64,000 nucleotides of DNA from a bacterium (GTDB taxonomy: Bacteria > UBA10199 > 2-02-FULL-50-16 > JAJFLM01), in assembly GCA_965216315.1 (NCBI GenBank), contig CBDCFN010000016.1, positions 1,664,001-1,728,000 on the forward strand, read 5' to 3'. The first letter of the stretch is position 1. The number at the start of each line of letters is the position of its first letter. The position numbers and the translations under genes were made by a program. Of this stretch, positions 27,006-64,000 are shown in pieces. The notes beneath the pieces are model-generated. The model saw only the letters and a program-made list of their open reading frames with translations. It searched no databases and was not told where the DNA came from.

Positions 27006-28136
27006 CTACTTTATAAGTGAGCAACCTCCGCTGGACCCACTATTAGTCGCACAATCAGCCGCACAGGAGGCCTCCGTCTCTCCGACTTCACAAGAACCAT
27101 TGCCACAGACAGTCTCGCTGCCAGCACAATCCTCGACGCAAGATGACACCGTTTCGTCATCATCACAGACATCATCGCCACAAACAGAACCGCTAGACGT
27201 CACGCAATCAGCGGGACAGGTCGCAGAGGTTTCCGGGTCCACACAAATATTGTTACCACATATTTCACCGCTTCCACCGCAGTCTTCTGCGCAGGAAGTT
27301 ACCGTCTCGTCTCCCTCACACACATCATTGCCACAAACCGATCCGACAGAGCAATCTTGGGGGCAATTCGAAGCATTCTCACCGCTGTTGCAAAAGCCAT
27401 TGCCGCACAGCCCGCCTCCTCCGCCGCCACCCCCACCGCAATCATCAGGACAGTTCGAGCTATTCTCGCCCGGCTCACAATCCCCATTGCCGCATACAGC
27501 CGGACAATCGGCAGGGCAGGTCGCATTCGTCTCTCCACAATCGCAGGAAGCATTTCCACAGGCGACCGTTCCAACCAGCGTCGACGTGCCTGCATTATTG
27601 GTGACACTGACTTCATCACAATCCAAGTCGACGAAACTATCATCGTCATTCCGACTCAATGACTGAATGGCTTCATGATTTCCGCCCGTCCAGCCACTGA
27701 CCTGTGAACTCTCAACAGTATCGACTTCACAAGGAGTGCCGCCACCACAATTGGGAGTTCCTGCCGCAATATAAAAAGCAATGTTAACATTGGCATCAAA
27801 ATTAGCGCACTCTGAATTACCAAAACTAAGATCTCCAGCAACGCTGGCAAAAGATTCAAAGCCGGAGCTCGCGGCTAATATCTTGTCGCCATCATTGTGA
27901 TTACCACTATTAAGCGTCGAGGCGAAAGACCCGAAAGCAACCAAAGTAGAGCTATCTTTGCGGATTTCATCTGCAGCGTCGAATTGATCTTGATTGTTAC
28001 TAAATATCTCCATCTCAACCGCACACTCGGTATTACTGAGCTTCACTATGCGACTGATAAAAACGTCGTGATGAACGGCAAACGCAGTCTGAGGGCAAGA
28101 TAAGCACCCTATCAAAACTATTAATAATTTTTTCAT
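27006..28136 (-). CDS. secreted Cys-rich repeat protein ending GGCSLIK
   Basis: Signal peptide; about 7 repeats of CG[ND]xxCxxxExxxxCxxDC; poly-Gly linker; GGAGGGAG RBS. Confidence 0.85.
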   Translation of the reverse strand: MKKLLIVLIGCLSCPQTAFAVHHDVFISRIVKLSNTECAVEMEIFSNNQDQFDAADEIRKDSSTLVAFGSFASTLNSGNHNDGDKILAASSGFESFASVAGDLSFGNSECANFDANVNIAFYIAAGTPNCGGGTPCEVDTVESSQVSGWTGGNHEAIQSLSRNDDDSFVDLDCDEVSVTNNAGTSTLVGTVACGNASCDCGETNATCPADCPAVCGNGDCEPGENSSNCPDDCGGGGGGGGGLCGNGFCNSGENASNCPQDCSVGSVCGNDVCEGDETVTSCAEDCGGSGEICGNNICVDPETSATCPADCVTSSGSVCGDDVCDDDETVSSCVEDCAGSETVCGNGSCEVGETEASCAADCATNSGSSGGCSLIK

Positions 28137-40650: not shown

Positions 40651-40661
40651 AAGTAATAAAA

Positions 40662-40777
40662 ACCGGCGACGTCCTACTCTCCCAGGGAATAACTCCCAAG
40701 TACCATCGGCTCTGGTGGGCTTAACTGCTGTGTTCGGAATGGGAACAGGTGTTTCCCCACCGACAAAGTCACCGGAA
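40662..40777 (-). rRNA. rrf: 5S rRNA
   Basis: Reverse complement has CACCTGTTCCCATTCCGAACACAGCAGTTAAG...GGGAGAGTAGGACGTCGCCGG. Confidence 0.95.
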
Positions 40778-40819
40778 ACTTTGCACCCTGTTTCACCTTC
40801 GCAAAACAGAGCGACTTAA

Positions 40820-43976
<3,157 letters not shown>

Positions 43977-43998
43977 TGTCAAAGAACTCGGGTCGTTC

Positions 43999-44190
43999 AG
44001 CGAACTGAAAACGCAGTTTCCAGTTCGCTATAGTTAGAGGGAAGAAAACTCTCTCCCCTCTAACAACACCCCATCGTGGGGTAATTTAAAAGACCAACTT
44101 TATCCTCTTCCCATAGATGCCAAAGGCATCGAGAGGGGAAGGCTCCAGGAGCTTTGCTTCTGGAGGGGGCGACGCAAGCCCCTTATAAAT
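43999..44190 (-). repeat. ITS structured element, copy A (3' trailer of tRNA-Ala)
   Basis: Shares GAAAACGCAGTTTCC, TCGCTATAG, AAAACTCTCTCCCC, CCCATCGT, GAGAGGGG, GGAGGGGGCGACGC-AGCCCCT with copy B. Confidence 0.75.
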
Positions 44191-44191
44191 G

Positions 44192-44264
44192 TGGAGCTGA
44201 GGGGGATCGAACCCCTGACCTCCTGGTTGCAAACCAGGCGCTCTCCCAATTGAGCTACAGCCCC
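44192..44264 (-). tRNA. tRNA-Ala(TGC)
   Basis: GGGGCTGTAGCTCAATTGGGAGAGCGCCTGGTTTGCAACCAGG...TTCGATCCCCCTCAGCTCCA; CCA not encoded. Confidence 0.96.
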
Positions 44265-44268
44265 GTCC

Positions 44269-44450
44269 GCAAAAACGAAAACGCAGTTTCCGTTTTCGCT
44301 ATAGATAGGGGTGAGAAAAACTCTCTCCCCCCTAACAACCCCCCATCGTTCACTCGATTGCGACGAAGTCGCTAGCGAGCAACGCGAGCGAGAGGGGCAG
44401 GCTCCGGCGGCTCTGCCGACCGGAGGGGGCGACGCGAGCCCCTAATAAGT
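44269..44450 (-). repeat. ITS structured element, copy B (3' trailer of tRNA-Ile)
   Basis: Colinear with copy A, with compensatory stem changes. Confidence 0.75.
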
Positions 44451-44451
44451 A

Positions 44452-44525
<74 letters not shown>

Positions 44526-44740
44526 GTGCAATACACAACATTAAAAAGAACAAAATACGCTCCCTTAAAACTGAACAGCGTTCGAGAATAAAGATGCACT
44601 TTCCATGGATACCGATCCACGGAAAGCTGACCTAAGGTACCGTGCCGATGTCGCTCATGAATTCCAGACAGGTCACTGTAAACAGCAACCGATCCTTCCA
44701 TCACAAGCATAGTGACATCAGACAACCAGTGACACCTTAG

Positions 44741-46296
<1,556 letters not shown>

Positions 46297-46805: not shown

Positions 46806-48887
46806 ATGGCTCTGATCAACCTATCTCTTAAACTTTTGATCGTCACAACATTATTGAGCATCGCAGCGCCCGTCCATGCGGCAACATTTACCGTTACCAA
46901 GACAGACGATACAGCCGACGGCACCTGCGACGATGATTGTTCCCTGCGCGAAGCCATCGACGAGGCCAATACGAATCTAGGTAGCGACGTCATTGAACTC
47001 CCGAGCGGAACCATCATGCTAACGCTAGAAGGACCGGGTGATGATACGAACGCCACCGGTGATCTGGACATTACCGAAAGCGTTACAATCAACGGCCACA
47101 GCGATGGAAGCATAATTGATGGAGGTAACGACACTCTCGCCAGTCCGGATCGCATCTTCCAAATCAACGCCGGTAAGTTCACACTCAACAATATTACCGT
47201 ACAAAATGGTAATGCCGGAGGAGAACCCGGCGGGGCTATTCTCAGCGCTTCGCCAAGCAACATAGTCATTAGTGATTCCGCAATTCTTGACAGCGTAACG
47301 ACATCCGCCGGCGGAGGTATCGCGTCGGGCAATGCCGCCGCCCAAATGACAATCACCAATACGACATTTGAACGAAATGAAGCCGGTAACGGCGGTGGTG
47401 CATTCGCCTGCAACTGCAATTCGCTTACTATGACGGGTGGTGCAGTGAATGAAAATAAAGTAACCGGAGGTAACGGGGGCGGAATCGCCTTACAAGGCAC
47501 AGGCAATTTAAGCATCTCCGAAACAAGTTTCGACGCAAACGAGACCGCATCCCTCGGCGGTGCTATTTGGGCACAAGTCCAAGGCTCTATGACTCTCTCG
47601 GGAATCATGCTTACCAATAACAAGGCAACCGCCGATGTCGGAGGAGCTGCCCTACAATCTGCCGGTGATATAGAAATCAGTGATTCCACCTTCGATGGCA
47701 ATGAATCAATGACAGGCAACGCGGGAGGGCTTAGCGCCAGTACCACTTCATTGCTGATTCTCGCTGACGTACACGTGACCAACAATACAGCCAACGTCGC
47801 CGCCGGTGGATTGTTCGCGCAAGCCGCCAATATCGAGATGGCCGGCGGAGAAATTTCAGGAAACGAGGCCACGGTGGGTATGATCGGCGGCGCGGCTTTT
47901 CTCAGTCCCGGTACCGCCGTCATCCGCGATGCGAGCATCGCGAACAACATCGCCGCAGCCGATACCGGAGGGGCCACGCTTCAAGTCACGACGGCTGCTG
48001 TCGTCGAGAATAGTACGATCAGCGGCAATACCTCGGGAAATGATGTCGGCGGCCTACTGATCAATTCAACCCTGTCTTTAGTAACCAATAGCACGATCAG
48101 CAACAACACCGCTACCAATGCGGTCGGGGGCCTGATTGTGACGGGCGGTCCCGGTACGCTGACGAATGTCACGATCGACGGTAATTCAGCGGCTGCAAAC
48201 ATGGGGGGCGGCCTTTACGCCAATTCGGCTGTTGAGCTCATCAATACGATTATCTCCAACAGTCCCAGCGGGGATGACTGCGCGGTAGGTGGTGGTTCCA
48301 TCACCTCACTCGGAAATAACCTCGATACGGATAATACCTGCAACTTGACCGAAGGAACGGATATTCCGAGTGGGAACCCCAATCTCGATACGCTCGCTGA
48401 CAACGGCGGACCCACCCAAACCCATGCCCTTTTAGCTGGCAGTGATGCCATCGACGCGGGTGACAACGCGGCGTGCCCCGACTTCGATCAGAGAGGTTTC
48501 GGAAGACCGACCGACGGTGATGACGATGGTACCGCCAACTGTGACATCGGCGCGTACGAAATCGATCGCTGCGGCGATGGCCTCGTTAACGATCCGGAAA
48601 TCTGCGACGACGGCAACAACGATGATGGCGACGGCTGTTCAGCCGATTGCACATCTGATGAAACGTGTGGCAACGGAATTGTTGATGCCAATGAATCATG
48701 TGATGATGGGAATACCGACGATGGTGATGGTTGCAGTGCAGACTGTTTATCGGATGAAAGCTGCGGCAACGGCGTCGTCGATGCGGTAACGGCAGAAGAA
48801 TGCGACGACGGCAACGCTGACGATGGTGATGGCTGTAGCGCAACGTGTACAAATGAAGGCGGCGGTGGCTGTTCGTTGATACGCTAG
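46806..48887 (+). CDS. CSLREA-domain beta-helix surface protein with choice-of-anchor Q and Myxococcus Cys-rich repeats, ending GGGGCSLIR
   Basis: Signal peptide; [18 protein letters not shown] repeats; [23 protein letters not shown]...DQRG...CDIGAYE; CGDG..CDDGN..DGDGCS x3. Confidence 0.92.
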
Positions 48888-48977
48888 AGTCTTATTTGAT
48901 AGAACTCAGTTGACGTGAACCGTCATATTTAGGACATAAAGGATCCATGCCATATTAACGTCACGAGGGAGGTTATC

Positions 48978-51900
48978 ATGCGAACTCACCGTAATTTTCG
49001 TAATGTCGCGTATATCATAGCTATACTGCTGAGTCTGAGTGACAGTACGGTAGTTCATGCCGCCGACTTTAATGTGACTAATTCCGACGATACGGCTAGC
49101 GATGGCGTCTGCGATAGCGACTGTACGCTGCGTGACGCTGTAGATGAGGCCAACTCGGCTGGAGGCACGGACAATATTTTTCTTCCTCAAGGCAATTATC
49201 TCCTCAATATCGACACGAACGCTGCCGGAGACGACGCCAACGCCAAAGGCGACTTAGACATCACCGAATCAGTCAATATTATCGGGGATGGCCGGGATGT
49301 GACAACGATCGATGGAGGTAATGGGCTTTTAGCCACACCGGACCGCATCTTCCATATCGATCCAGGTGCAGCGGTCACGGGAGTAGATGTCTCCATTTCG
49401 GGAGTGACGCTCCAGTTCGGTAACGCCACTGGCAGCAATGGTGGCGCTATATTTGACGAAGGTGACGGCGCCTTATCGATCAGCAATGCAAAAATTCAAA
49501 TGAACAATGCTCCAGGACTTGGTGGGGGCATTTATAAGGCGACCTCCAATAAATTGATGAAGGTTGAAGGAAGTATCATCTCGATGAATCAGGCCAGCGC
49601 CGGCGCTGGCGGTCTCTTTTCAGCAAGTGAACCACTGGAGATAAGTGAAAGTACAATCAGTGACAACGTCACGTCAGGTTCGGGCGGTGGTCTCTACCAC
49701 GCTGGAGCCGGCTTGGATTCAGTCACGATCACAAACACCACGATAGACGAAAATACCGGTGGCGGTATCTTTGAGACAGGGTCAGTAGATCTTACGATCA
49801 CCGGCGGTTCGATAAGTGGCAACCATAATGGGCCGGGAGGTGGCATATTTGCAACTATTACCGGGGCAATCAATATCACTGATTGTCAGATAAATAACAA
49901 TGCCACGACGGGCCCAGGCGGCGGCGTCTTTCATGCTGGGGGCACCGACTTCACGATCGACGGCGGTTCGGTCAGCGGCAATCAATCGAGCGGCGGGGGC
50001 GGTATCTACGCGGCGGGTTCGGGCTTCTTCAAGGCCAGCAGCTCCGTCGTCGTCGATAACAACGATGCCGGGCCAGGACCCGGTGGCGGTATCCTTCACG
50101 CTGGGGGCACCGACTTCACGATCGACGGCGGTTCGGTCAGCGGCAATCAATCGAGCGGCGGGGGCGGTATCTACGCGGCGGGTTCGGGCTTCTTCAAGGC
50201 CAGCAGCTCCGTCGTCGTCGACAACAACGAGGCCGGACCTGGACCCGGTGGCGGTATCCTTCACGCTGGGGGCACCGACTTCACGATCGACGGCGGTTCG
50301 GTCAGCGGCAATCAATCGAGCGGCGGGGGCGGTATCTACGCGGCGGGTTCGGGCTTCTTCAAGGCCAGCAGCTCCGTCGTCGTCGACAACAACGAGGCCG
50401 GGCCAGGACCCGGCGGCGGGATCTTTCATGCTGGGGGCACCGACTTCACGATCGACGGCGGTTCGGTCAGTGGCAATCAATCGAGCGGCGGGGGCGGTAT
50501 CTACGCGGCGGGTTCGGGTTTCTTTAAAGCCAGCAGTTCCGTCGTCGTCGACAACAACGAGGCCGGACCTGGACCCGGCGGCGGTATCCTTCACGCCGCG
50601 GGCACCGACTTCACGATCGACGGCGGTTCGGTCAGTGGCAATCAATCGAGCGGCGGGGGCGGTATCTACGCGGCGGGTTCGGGTTTCTTTAAAGCCAGCA
50701 GTTCCGTCGTCGTCGACAACAACGAGGCCGGACCTGGACCCGGCGGCGGTATCCTTCACGCCGCGGGCACCGACTTCACGATCGACGGCGGTTCGGTCAG
50801 CGGCAATCAATCTAACGGTGGCGGTGGTATCTATGCGGTAGGTTCCGGTTCTTTCATGGGTTCCAATCTAGCCGTTCATGACAATGAATCGGCAACAGCT
50901 CCCGGCGGTGGCATTGTATACGGTGGCACTGATCTTACCCTCGAACGGTCATCGATCAATAGGAATTTCAGTGCAAATGCCGAGGGAGGTGGGATCTACT
51001 TTGTTGGTACCGGAGCGCTGAATTTAACTAACAGCACAATCAGCGCAAATTTATCGTCACTCCAAGGTGGCGGCATTTATCACGATAGCGGTGCTGTCAG
51101 TACCATCCTGAATACAACCCTTTACAACAATCGTGGGCCGATGGGTGCACAGATAAGTAATGCGGGCGCTTTTGCAATCGAGATCGAAAATAGTATTCTG
51201 GCAAGCGATGAAGACCTCCCCGCCGACAATTGCGGCGGGGGCGGCACCTTTACCTCACTCGGTCACAACATTGACAGCGGCAGTTCATGTGGCTTTGCAG
51301 GTAGTGGCGATTTATCCGACGAAGATCCCCTCTTAGCCACATTGTCCAGCAATGGCAGTACGACGCTCAGCCATGCGCTCCTGGACGGCAGTCCCGCGAT
51401 TGATAGCGGTGAAAACAGCAACTGCCCCAGCGTGGATCAGCGCGGCGTTGGCCGTCCGGTCGACGGTGACGAAGACGGCAATGCCGATTGCGACATCGGC
51501 GCTTTTGAATTGTCCAACTGCGGTGATGGTGCCATCCAATTCCCTGAAGAATGCGATGATGGCAATGATTCTAACAACGACGACTGCCTCAACAGCTGCT
51601 TTGCAGCAACTTGCGGTGATAACGTGGTCCATGCTGGTATCGAAGAATGTGACGACGGCAACACCGATGATGGCGACGGCTGCAGTTCCACTTGTAGTGA
51701 CGAAGTCGCCGATGACCTAGAAGCAGACAATCCCGATATCGACTTCGGTAATCTAGTTCAGGACACGACGTATGACCTGGAACCTGCCGACCCTCGACCT
51801 GCCGCACTTGTCTTGCAGGCCGCTGAACTGCCCGAAACATGTTCGTGCACCTGGGCCCAAGACGAAAGTTTAGATGGCCAAGGTGAATTCAGTGATACGG

Positions 51901-52052
51901 CGACATGTCTGACGCAGTTTACGCCGCGCAGTTTGGGTGATGGCCAGATGACGGTCGACGCTGACTGTGGAACCGACGGGATACAGACATTTCGTCAGGC
52001 CTTCACGGTCGTTCCCAAATCCGGTGGTGGGGGCTGTTCATTGATTCGCTAA
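48978..52052 (+). CDS. CSLREA-like beta-helix surface protein with choice-of-anchor Q and Cys-rich repeats, ending GGGGCSLIR
   Basis: Signal peptide; DGVCDSDCTLRDAV; GGGI repeats; HALLDGSPAIDSG..DQRG..CDIGAFE; CGDG/CDDGN repeats. Confidence 0.92.
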   Translation: MRTHRNFRNVAYIIAILLSLSDSTVVHAADFNVTNSDDTASDGVCDSDCTLRDAVDEANSAGGTDNIFLPQGNYLLNIDTNAAGDDANAKGDLDITESVNIIGDGRDVTTIDGGNGLLATPDRIFHIDPGAAVTGVDVSISGVTLQFGNATGSNGGAIFDEGDGALSISNAKIQMNNAPGLGGGIYKATSNKLMKVEGSIISMNQASAGAGGLFSASEPLEISESTISDNVTSGSGGGLYHAGAGLDSVTITNTTIDENTGGGIFETGSVDLTITGGSISGNHNGPGGGIFATITGAINITDCQINNNATTGPGGGVFHAGGTDFTIDGGSVSGNQSSGGGGIYAAGSGFFKASSSVVVDNNDAGPGPGGGILHAGGTDFTIDGGSVSGNQSSGGGGIYAAGSGFFKASSSVVVDNNEAGPGPGGGILHAGGTDFTIDGGSVSGNQSSGGGGIYAAGSGFFKASSSVVVDNNEAGPGPGGGIFHAGGTDFTIDGGSVSGNQSSGGGGIYAAGSGFFKASSSVVVDNNEAGPGPGGGILHAAGTDFTIDGGSVSGNQSSGGGGIYAAGSGFFKASSSVVVDNNEAGPGPGGGILHAAGTDFTIDGGSVSGNQSNGGGGIYAVGSGSFMGSNLAVHDNESATAPGGGIVYGGTDLTLERSSINRNFSANAEGGGIYFVGTGALNLTNSTISANLSSLQGGGIYHDSGAVSTILNTTLYNNRGPMGAQISNAGAFAIEIENSILASDEDLPADNCGGGGTFTSLGHNIDSGSSCGFAGSGDLSDEDPLLATLSSNGSTTLSHALLDGSPAIDSGENSNCPSVDQRGVGRPVDGDEDGNADCDIGAFELSNCGDGAIQFPEECDDGNDSNNDDCLNSCFAATCGDNVVHAGIEECDDGNTDDGDGCSSTCSDEVADDLEADNPDIDFGNLVQDTTYDLEPADPRPAALVLQAAELPETCSCTWAQDESLDGQGEFSDTATCLTQFTPRSLGDGQMTVDADCGTDGIQTFRQAFTVVPKSGGGGCSLIR
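49911..50850 (+). repeat. intragenic tandem repeat, 165-bp (55-aa) unit, about 5.7 copies
   Basis: GGCACCGACTTCACGATCGAC recurs at 49941, 50106, 50271, 50436, 50601, 50766. Confidence 0.95.
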
Positions 52053-62250: not shown

Positions 62251-64000
62251 ATGTTGAAAAAAATCTTATTCGTTAGCTTGGCCACATTGGCCCTTATACA
62301 CGTAGCAAGCGGCACTATCTTAGCAGCGCCGCAAGAGGCCCTCAGGGCAGATTGTGTCGCTCACCTTGCTGACCGCGAGGTTCGCCTCGACAGTCGCTGC
62401 ATTTATGAAGAGTTAATCCATCGGGAAGATACGATAAATCCAGATGAAACTGATGACTTAATGCATCGGGAAGATACGATAAATCCTGATGAAGAGGTCG
62501 GCGGTGAACGCGACCGCGACCCAGTTCGTGAGCCGTATCCGGAAGCGGAACCAGAACTGGATGATCCGTTAGCAGAAAACCCTGAGGAAGAAGTCATCGA
62601 TGACTCTACTTTCGATGAAGTTGAAGAAGCTTTAGAAGACAGCATCGAGCCCGAGGAAGTGGCAGAGATTGAAGACGAACTCGACGAAGAAATTCTGGCA
62701 GGCGAACCCATCTTCATTCAAGGCGGCGGCTCAGGCTGCGCTTTGACTCAAGCGGCGCCCACAAATGATCTGGGCGGAATCGCGGGCCTCTTATTCGGCG
62801 CCATATTCCTGCTCTTCATCGTGCGTCGGAGATCATCGCAGCGTTTCGTCCGCGCATCACTCGTGTTGTTTGCCATTGCCGCATTGGCAATGGGTTGTTC
62901 AAATAGTAGCACGGGACCGTCGGATCCGGGTCCCGTTTCAGGCCCTGAGATTGTCGATCCTGAGATTCCTTCAGTCGACGAAGCGGATCCTGAAGCAGCG
63001 GAAACCGATACCCCCCCTTCCGTAGAAGATGAGATTGAAACCGAAGAAGAAGACGTCGAGCCTGAAGAAGAAGGCAGCGCTGAAATTGATCCAGAAGCGG
63101 GCGAAGAAGCGGAGGAAGAAGAGAGCTATACGGAACTAACGGTTCCAAACTTGCTCGGCACCATGCATGTTATTCTTCCTCAATTGGTTCCCGGTACTGA
63201 GGACGGGGCCGCCTTTGATCGTTTTGGTTATGCCATTGCCTCGAGCGGAAATACCGTTATCGTCGGGGCCCCCCGTGATGACGATAATCACTGGGGAGGA
63301 ATCGGTAACAACTCAGGAGCCGTCTATATTTATGAGCGCCGCACGAACGGTTCTTGGAACCGTCAAAAGATCGATCTCGCGAGTGATTACAATGACCGTT
63401 TTGGCTATTCCGTCGCCATTAGTGGCAATCGCGCCATCGTCGGTGTTCCCGGAGATGATGAGAACGGAACGGATTCCGGGGCCGCTTACATCCTCGAGCG
63501 CGACGCCGCCGGCAACTGGAATTCTCTAAGAATTAAGACAAATAATCCCATCGCCCGGGCGGCCTTCGGTCACGCAGTCGCCATCAGTGGTAATTTTGCG
63601 GTTGTCGGCGCCCCCAATGAAGACTCCGACGCGGCCATTGACACGGGTGCCATCTACACCTTTGAGCGGCAAGCCCCAGGCGCTTGGGAACAAGAACAAA
63701 AACTCACCGCTAGGGACGATGCCGCAGCCGGCGATGTCTTCGGACAAGCCGTTGCCATCAGCGGTGATTATCTTGTTGCCGGGGCTCCCAGCAACCGTGC
63801 GAGCGAGGCCGGCAAGGCCTACCTCTTTCGACGCGGTGACATCGAAATACCTGTAACTTGCCCAGAAGGTGAAGAATACGACGAACACGGTAACCGTAAC
63901 TATTGTTATCCCGGAGCCCTTATCACCGGCTGGATACGCGAGCACAAATTCGATGAGTCGCTATCTAGCATTGCAAGCGAAATATCTACTGGAGATCGAT
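62251..64000 (+). CDS. partial surface protein: signal peptide, acidic region, internal CTERM-like anchor plus lipobox, FG-GAP repeats (runs off window)
   Basis: Not in ORF track (no stop in window). GGAGGT RBS; open frame MLKKILFVSL...; FGYAIASSGNTVIVGAP, FGYSVAISGNRAIVGVP, FGHAVAISGNFAVVGAP, FGQAVAISGDYLVAGAP. Confidence 0.9.
   Translation, partial: MLKKILFVSLATLALIHVASGTILAAPQEALRADCVAHLADREVRLDSRCIYEELIHREDTINPDETDDLMHREDTINPDEEVGGERDRDPVREPYPEAEPELDDPLAENPEEEVIDDSTFDEVEEALEDSIEPEEVAEIEDELDEEILAGEPIFIQGGGSGCALTQAAPTNDLGGIAGLLFGAIFLLFIVRRRSSQRFVRASLVLFAIAALAMGCSNSSTGPSDPGPVSGPEIVDPEIPSVDEADPEAAETDTPPSVEDEIETEEEDVEPEEEGSAEIDPEAGEEAEEEESYTELTVPNLLGTMHVILPQLVPGTEDGAAFDRFGYAIASSGNTVIVGAPRDDDNHWGGIGNNSGAVYIYERRTNGSWNRQKIDLASDYNDRFGYSVAISGNRAIVGVPGDDENGTDSGAAYILERDAAGNWNSLRIKTNNPIARAAFGHAVAISGNFAVVGAPNEDSDAAIDTGAIYTFERQAPGAWEQEQKLTARDDAAAGDVFGQAVAISGDYLVAGAPSNRASEAGKAYLFRRGDIEIPVTCPEGEEYDEHGNRNYCYPGALITGWIREHKFDESLSSIASEISTGDR

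Follow-up and report, generated by a model that had tools for sequence, protein, structure and literature searches.

A short C-terminal cysteine tag without a membrane helix on exported proteins of a bacterial phylum, and candidate enzymes for its processing

The 64,000-nucleotide stretch of bacterial DNA analysed here (the window; positions 1,664,001 to 1,728,000 of contig CBDCFN010000016.1, assembly GCA_965216315.1) contains three genes for exported proteins that end in a short tag centred on a cysteine. Two of them are neighbours and encode CSLREA / choice-of-anchor Q beta-helix proteins, an assignment made in the sequence-only reading that drew attention to the tag and now backed by matches of both proteins to the NCBIfam models NF041518, TIGR02232, and TIGR04214. 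The first protein (46806..48887, plus strand, 693 residues) contains three cysteine-rich acidic DUF4215 repeats and carries the tag at its end (48858..48887, plus strand, stop codon TAG). The second (48978..52052, plus strand, 1024 residues) has DUF4215 repeats and a small unnamed domain ahead of the tag (52023..52052, plus strand, stop codon TAA). The two genes end in the same tail, written in partly different codons, as had been read. The third gene (27006..28136, minus strand) encodes 376 residues from an ATG at 28136; the protein has cysteine-rich repeats, matches no NCBIfam or Pfam family, and ends in SSGGCSLIK followed by TAG. This tail had been named correctly and occupies 27006..27035 (minus strand); the range given for it earlier, 27006–27038, holds one more glycine codon. 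Relatives of the third protein (L065, P0002) likewise finish in short tags. Sec signal peptides, predicted earlier for all three proteins, were recognised by a crude hydrophobicity test and inspection, and no sorting-signal model was matched by the three proteins in the NCBIfam search. The beta-helix of the 1024-residue protein includes about six near-identical repeats of about 57 residues each (~49900–50850, plus strand). The N-terminal C-S/T-L-R motif of the CSLREA proteins (genes at 46806 and 48978) looks like the C-terminal C-S-L-I-R; the likeness is probably due to chance, because that cysteine looks paired with a neighbour.

The tag recurs throughout the genome to which the window belongs (2.96 Mb, 98% complete). 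The pattern [GSA][GSA]C[STA]L followed by one to nine residues at the C-terminus was sought in 2210 genes that encode 130 residues or more, taken from a crude set of non-overlapping genes. The tag is carried by 29 of them, mostly as GGCSLIR, whereas random internal pseudo-ends matched 0.49 times on average and three times at most in 200 rounds. Signal-peptide-like N-termini without a further helix were found in 27 of the 29 carriers, as against 386 of the 2181 other genes (Fisher p 3e-18), with the calls made by the crude hydrophobicity test and not by SignalP. The carriers form 12 single-linkage homology clusters, the largest with 15 members. Their Pfam domains include beta-helices, delta-60-type DUF5122, DUF11, FG-GAP, beta-propeller, Ig-like, and metallopeptidase-like domains, and eight carriers have no Pfam match. 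The sequence-only reading had proposed a helix-free, cysteine-centred tag on unrelated exported proteins, to be sought by a proteome-wide motif search and a test for signal-peptide enrichment; the search confirms that the short tag is a real, conserved, helix-free C-terminal tag on unrelated exported proteins.

Between four and nine residues follow the cysteine, and 24 of the 29 tails stop four or five residues behind it. The position −5, previously assigned to the cysteine, holds as the mode (16 of 29) and not as a rule. The third residue after the cysteine (+3) is isoleucine in 14 tails, valine in five, leucine in four, arginine in four, and methionine in two, and the fourth (+4) is arginine in 25. 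Synonymous codons vary freely in the tails, where five arginine and six leucine codons are in use. The basic residues amount mostly to one arginine, sometimes two, and in some relatives none. Read-through of the stop codon into a helix is ruled out by the read-through frames, which are hydrophobic in two of the 29 tagged genes versus 232 of 2526 genes, and by the use of all three stops (13 TAA, 10 TAG, and 6 TGA). The in-frame spacing of tandem tagged genes was also considered as a trace of split polyproteins and was rejected, as three of six pairs counted by hand correspond to the chance level. Clusters of tagged genes are flanked at C16:2260779-2289711 and 105078-106650 by repeated pairs of a related, regulator-like protein of about 285 residues and a lipoprotein.

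The tag recurs across an uncultured phylum, for which 72 genomes of relatives, at least 85% complete, were retrieved, from 24 families of a single class. The pattern GC[ST]L[IVM][RK..]-stop was matched in 24 of 60 relatives; nine of them have 3–28 matches, while the reversed control gave at most two. When 185,579 species genomes were scanned with a strict pattern, 32 loci matched, of which 17 are real gene ends in seven genomes and 15 are short chance frames; variant tails outside the phylum could escape the strict pattern. The seven genomes presumably belong to the GTDB phylum UBA10199. The strict tail pattern had no match in viral contigs. The 120 homologues retrieved with the repeat region are mostly DUF4215 proteins from other groups, and one of them ends in a short tag. 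Among 46 pooled tails of other genomes, 18 are exactly CSLIR.

In the same genome, a long form of the tag is carried by at least 15 proteins, with others found besides; in this form the GGCSL signature is followed by a polar linker, a membrane helix, and a basic cluster in the manner of MYXO-CTERM. Nine of the 15 have a short-tag homologue in the genome. In one family, four members are long and one is short; the long ones are 40–47% identical to the short one over about 560–610 columns, with identical residues up to the cysteine. The 16 choice-of-anchor Q proteins of the genome comprise nine with short ends, five with long ends, and two that end otherwise. For the relatives, 89 loci around choice-of-anchor Q matches yielded 60 tails (27 short, 25 long, and eight other); two short tails were then dropped as chance frames, one other was moved to the long tails, and seven were left out. 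An aliphatic residue occupies +3 in 25/29 short versus 2/15 long tails of the own genome and in 20/25 versus 4/26 tails of relatives, and arginine or lysine occurs at +3 to +5 in 29/29 versus 3/15 and in 17/25 versus 3/26, respectively. The long form has asparagine, serine, proline, or alanine where the short form has its aliphatic residue and then arginine. The best hydrophobic 15-mer begins 8–15 residues behind the cysteine in all 41 of 41 long tags. A few intermediate tails have 16–21 residues without a helix, and two polyproteins of the relative G010 carry long tags between their units and GGCSLIR at the end.

Judged by sequence, the short tail is the helix-free form of the phylum's MYXO-CTERM-type signal and not an independent signal, because the same genome and the homologues carry the GGCSL-helix-basic form and the two forms are swapped. 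The stand-alone signal of the sequence-only reading therefore does not stand; many homologues continue into a transmembrane helix, which that reading had itself named as evidence against its proposal. The short form is not a random truncation, because its own ending, aliphatic at +3 and then arginine, differs from that of the long form. The search of the NCBIfam sorting models that had been suggested left all 43 short tails without a match at E up to 1. JDVT-CTERM was matched weakly by 9 of 26 long tails (best E 0.0028) and MYXO-CTERM by 7 of 26. A loose DNA pattern for long tags was discarded, its counts being equal to the control.

The window also contains a long form (62722..62898, plus strand, coordinates counted by hand), within a gene that begins at 62251 and is cut off by the end of the window. 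Gly/Ser-Cys-Ala-Leu, a linker, a helix, and RRR occupy 62722–62832 and are followed directly by a lipoprotein-type signal with a lipobox cysteine, up to 62898. The gene as a whole (62251–64000, plus strand) encodes a signal peptide, an acidic domain, the internal long tag, the lipoprotein-type signal, and FG-GAP-like repeats, a layout that corresponds to a hairpin with one cysteine at each periplasmic end. Elsewhere in the genome, a 2997-residue polyprotein (L003:2414-11407, minus strand; C16:2348413-2357406) has four CSLREA / choice-of-anchor Q units joined by a long tag and a new signal peptide, and similar designs occur in G010 and G051. At C16:2256001-2258985 (minus strand), an internal long tag precedes a second signal peptide and an additional domain; this joint and comparable ones in G006, G019, and G058 recall MXAN_5598, as described in parts of PMC11980579. 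A second type of long tag with two cysteines (GCGC or GCSC), closer to classical MYXO-CTERM, is found in many genomes of the phylum (L257:2-706, plus strand; also L260, L280, L294, L296, L298, and L305). A complete rRNA operon (16S, two tRNAs, 23S, and 5S; 40661–46296, minus strand) lies directly ahead of the two CSLREA genes of the window.

About 177 kb beyond the window is an operon of lgt1, a lipoprotein gene, ileS, lspA, lgt2, and a myxosortase gene (C16:1904925-1911004, minus strand). The myxosortase is the single match of the genome to PF02517 (CPBP). It scores 118.1 bits on the myxosortase core model NF040914 (cut-off 100), 56.3 on the MrtJ model (cut-off 75), and 71.7 on the MrtS model (cut-off 130). 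A myxosortase above the cut-off is present in 57 of 61 genomes, and 58 of 61 have at least two Lgt matches. The lgt2 gene lies directly upstream of the myxosortase gene at 28 of the 30 top-scoring loci and at 49 of 51 overall (the 30 best, 20 regions whose extent was set by known coordinates, and the own locus); one exception is at a contig end and the other has 1.2 kb without an lgt. Five of the seven genomes from the species scan were tested, and each has a myxosortase above the cut-off and an Lgt2 that is 67–100% identical to members of this phylum. The products of lgt1 and lgt2 in the own genome are 28% identical, and Lgt2 reaches 168 bits on PF01790. At L158 (G008:C2:251800-255200), two Lgt matches stand in tandem ahead of the myxosortase.

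The six Rce1 catalytic residues (E, E, R, H, H, N) are kept in 50 of 50 myxosortases. Equivalents of R143, G154, R239, E243, and R246 are present in 47 of 47 Lgt2 proteins, where the E. coli numbering was transferred through the other Lgt; Lgt2 has no direct PDB match. The predicted myxosortase structure (pLDDT 96) has MmRce1 (PDB: 4CAD) as its best fold match (E 0.009, TM 0.57). Loop charges place the arginine end of the catalytic helix inside, so that, by the layout of MmRce1, the cavity would open to the periplasm. A complex predicted for the myxosortase and the C-terminal 35 residues of the 693-residue protein scored 0.02 (mark 0.32), with controls not folded, and supports neither side. 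In an inspection by eye for residues of Lgt2 or myxosortase that track the type of tag, one loop motif seemed to follow the tree and not the tag. We infer that Lgt2 and the myxosortase are the candidate lipidating and trimming enzymes for the short tail. A processing enzyme specific to the tag had been proposed earlier; the best candidates are instead the myxosortase shared across the lineage and the second Lgt.

Long tails were found in families f4, f7, f13, f15, and f19, short tails in f5, f8, f9, f14, f16, f17, f18, and f23, and both forms in f1 and f21. The tail label changes five times on a tree of Lgt2 and myxosortase whose root position is not fixed, and at least four of the changes are forced by well-supported branches; for many genomes the family and tree labels come from no more than two tails, and 14 of the 47 tree rows are unlabelled. 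The distribution reflects either an old trait that was lost several times or a repeated origin.

We consider it rather likely that the short tail is a MYXO-CTERM-type tail without a helix, lipidated by Lgt2 and trimmed by the myxosortase, and that the protein is thereby anchored at the surface. Sec would carry the protein across the inner membrane, with the tail emerging last at the periplasmic face. The Leu-Ile pair, usually with arginine, would hold the tail at the membrane surface in place of the helix of the long form, which looks like a tether. Lgt2 would add a diacylglyceryl group to the cysteine thiol, and the myxosortase, an Rce1-type protease, would trim the four to nine residues behind the lipidated cysteine, as Rce1 removes aaX. 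The type II secretion system, an operon for which is present in the own genome, would move the lipid-anchored protein to the surface. Once Lgt2 has lipidated the cysteine, trimming by the myxosortase is quite probable; failing that, the tail would stay. Because the helix of the long form begins 8–15 residues behind the cysteine after a polar linker, C-S-L is probably what the enzymes recognise at the periplasmic surface, with the helix acting as a tether only. MmRce1 cleaved a farnesylated, helix-free peptide of similar sequence, ending in GCLVS, as reported in parts of 10.1101/2023.06.07.544157, and according to review passages a lipidated tetrapeptide is enough for Rce1, whose preference is for an aliphatic residue at the second position after the cysteine. 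The short tag has leucine at this position.

Several observations weigh against processing of the short tail by Lgt2 and the myxosortase, the strongest being that the long tags alone account for both enzymes. A first profile of 26 long tails found no long tag at E 0.005 in 13 of 65 genomes, having missed real ones in two; a broader profile of 55 tails, used to retest 11 of those 13 and G028, found long tags in 11 of the 12. After this retest, genomes with the short form only can no longer be cited to prove that the enzymes act on the short tag, and retention of the operon is uninformative on the short form. The cysteine sorting signals described so far need a helix, which in the published model holds the protein during lipidation (parts of 10.1101/2023.06.07.544157 and PMC11980579). 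The position of lgt2 may reflect ordinary lipoprotein processing, because lgt2 also follows lspA. In Lgt2, H103 of E. coli Lgt is replaced (by Y in 19, W in 10, L in 9, I in 7, and F in 2 of 47) and N146 is replaced by C in 47 of 47; the other Lgt of the own genome deviates likewise, which weakens this objection and does not remove it. MrtX cut TraA in E. coli, hence a special Lgt was unnecessary there (parts of PMC11980579). Arginine is not universal in the tails of relatives, which include CSLIPEQ and CSLILP. The raw number of cysteines before the tag, even in 18 of 29 carriers and odd in 11 (p 0.26), gives no sign of a free tag cysteine; as a free-thiol test this parity was set aside, being not significant, and untagged exported proteins have no even bias either (66 of 142).

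A different fate of the short-tagged proteins, in which no lipid anchor is added and the tail is a motif recognised in export or attachment, with release or binding to a matrix or partner, is unlikely. Both forms exist side by side in the own genome (29 and at least 15 proteins) and across the phylum, and TraA without its whole MYXO-CTERM was released through the type II secretion system (parts of PMC11980579), which would suit such a division; release requires no tail, yet the cysteine is kept, and homologous units take either form even within one polyprotein. Slightly less likely still is a lipidating or processing enzyme dedicated to the short tag, other than Lgt2 and the myxosortase. No enzyme recurs among the 86 neighbours of short-tag genes, where by inspection the repeats are OmpA-type proteins, regulators, and lipoproteins, and the own genome has a single CPBP protein, no exosortase found, and no match to the prenyltransferase family PF00432, for which the control genomes were silent too. 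The distinct ending at +3 and +4 and the two rhomboids of the genome speak for such an enzyme, and the patchy, family-clustered spread with its five changes on the tree could track another gene.

A disulfide of the tag cysteine, whether internal, between two copies, or with a partner at the surface, with L-I-R as a terminal docking strand and no lipid, is improbable. The odd cysteine counts in 11 of the 29 proteins would fit it; in six odd cases inspected, however, the spare cysteines look lone inside beta-helix or choice-of-anchor Q segments, a judgement made after the fact, the tag also occurs on proteins with no or two other cysteines, and its signature equals that of the helix-bearing tag. 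Least probable, and already largely refuted, is that the short tails are neutral remnants of long tags that lost their helix by nonsense mutation and left a functionless stub. The plain relation of the two forms and the few intermediate tails point in this direction; opposed to it are the narrow range of tail lengths, the arginine at +4, the varied arginine and leucine codons, the difference from the long form at +3 and +4, the frames behind the stop, which hold no decayed helix, and the frequency of exact CSLIR in other genomes.

The short tag is a conserved and apparently undescribed form of the myxosortase-type sorting signal that lacks the helix, and two enzymes stand as concrete candidates for its processing. 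In the accessible parts of the literature, the prokaryotic C-terminal sorting signals described all consist of a motif with a helix and a basic cluster behind it; in this phylum, dozens of proteins do without the helix. All four cysteine-containing signals in the available text of 10.1101/2023.06.07.544157 are tripartite, and the words Lgt, diacylglyceryl, and truncated were not found in it. The acyltransferase for the MYXO-CTERM cysteine is given as unidentified in the available parts of PMC11980579, with Lgt as the leading candidate. Neither GGCSLIR nor a helix-free form was found in the portions of the published literature searched, although the client table of PMC11980579 could hold short variants; together with the silence of the NCBIfam sorting models, this agrees with the earlier suggestion that the tag is new. 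Loss of the helix across the phylum would show that the cysteine motif is sufficient as a signal. With lgt2, coupled to the protease, the lineage has a specific candidate for the lipidating gene, and the tail gives a water-soluble peptide substrate. If the proposal is true, proteins could be lipid-anchored at their C-terminus in a simple way, with a seven-residue tail and two genes as the tool.

The nearest comparison is MYXO-CTERM (TIGR03901, TIGR03382; myxosortase MrtX/MrtC/MrtP, NF040914); the comparisons made here also draw on parts of PMC8689077, PMC8048626, PMC5874806, and 10.64898/2026.02.05.703148. Both signals place a Gly-rich linker and an invariant cysteine at the C-terminal end of dozens of exported proteins that are otherwise unrelated, and both go with a single-copy myxosortase above the cut-off and a type II secretion system. 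They share client domains, and the DUF4215 homologues with myxobacterial names have Cys-helix-Arg tails. Unlike MYXO-CTERM, with its two to five basic residues, the short tag has no helix and no cytoplasmic basic cluster; its single cysteine is in C-S-L and not GCGC, it belongs to another phylum, and the myxosortase here is coupled to a second Lgt, a neighbourhood unmentioned in the available parts of 10.1101/2023.06.07.544157 and PMC11980579. Compared with the tripartite signals as defined by Haft, the short tag is C-terminal, occurs in many copies with an invariant-Cys motif on otherwise unrelated carriers with signal peptides, and lacks the transmembrane helix and the terminal basic cluster. 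JDVT-CTERM (NF033191, with MrtJ) and Synerg-CTERM (TIGR04564, with MrtS) also have a single cysteine behind a Gly/Ser stretch, but are tripartite, and JDVT-CTERM usually has a DP motif and a single client in each genome, encoded next to its protease.

The pathway of N-terminal lipoproteins (lipobox, Lgt, LspA) resembles the proposed one in that an Lgt-family enzyme would modify the cysteine and a membrane protease would follow, and lgt1, lspA, lgt2, and the myxosortase gene lie in one operon. The short tag differs in being C-terminal, with reversed chain direction and no h-region, and C-S-L-I read backwards fits the lipobox [LV][ASTVI][GAS]C only loosely. Eukaryotic CaaX processing (prenyltransferase, Rce1, Icmt) and archaeal MmRce1 share with the short tag a short, helix-free tail behind the cysteine, an aliphatic residue at +2, and a protease of the Rce1 fold with the same six catalytic residues. 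In CaaX proteins, however, three residues follow the cysteine, and here there are four to nine (none of the 29 tails has three, though the pattern allowed it); the short-tag proteins are exported to the periplasmic side, and the proposed lipid is diacylglyceryl. An extracytoplasmic bacterial counterpart of CaaX, in which a dedicated Lgt paralogue lipidates a soluble C-terminal Cys-Ser-Leu-Ile-Arg and an Rce1-type protease trims it, so that the protein is anchored at the surface without a helix at any stage, is a tentative possibility. If true, the tag would be a portable seven-residue anchoring tag, and Lgt2 would be the missing lipidating enzyme of the cysteine-containing C-terminal sorting signals.
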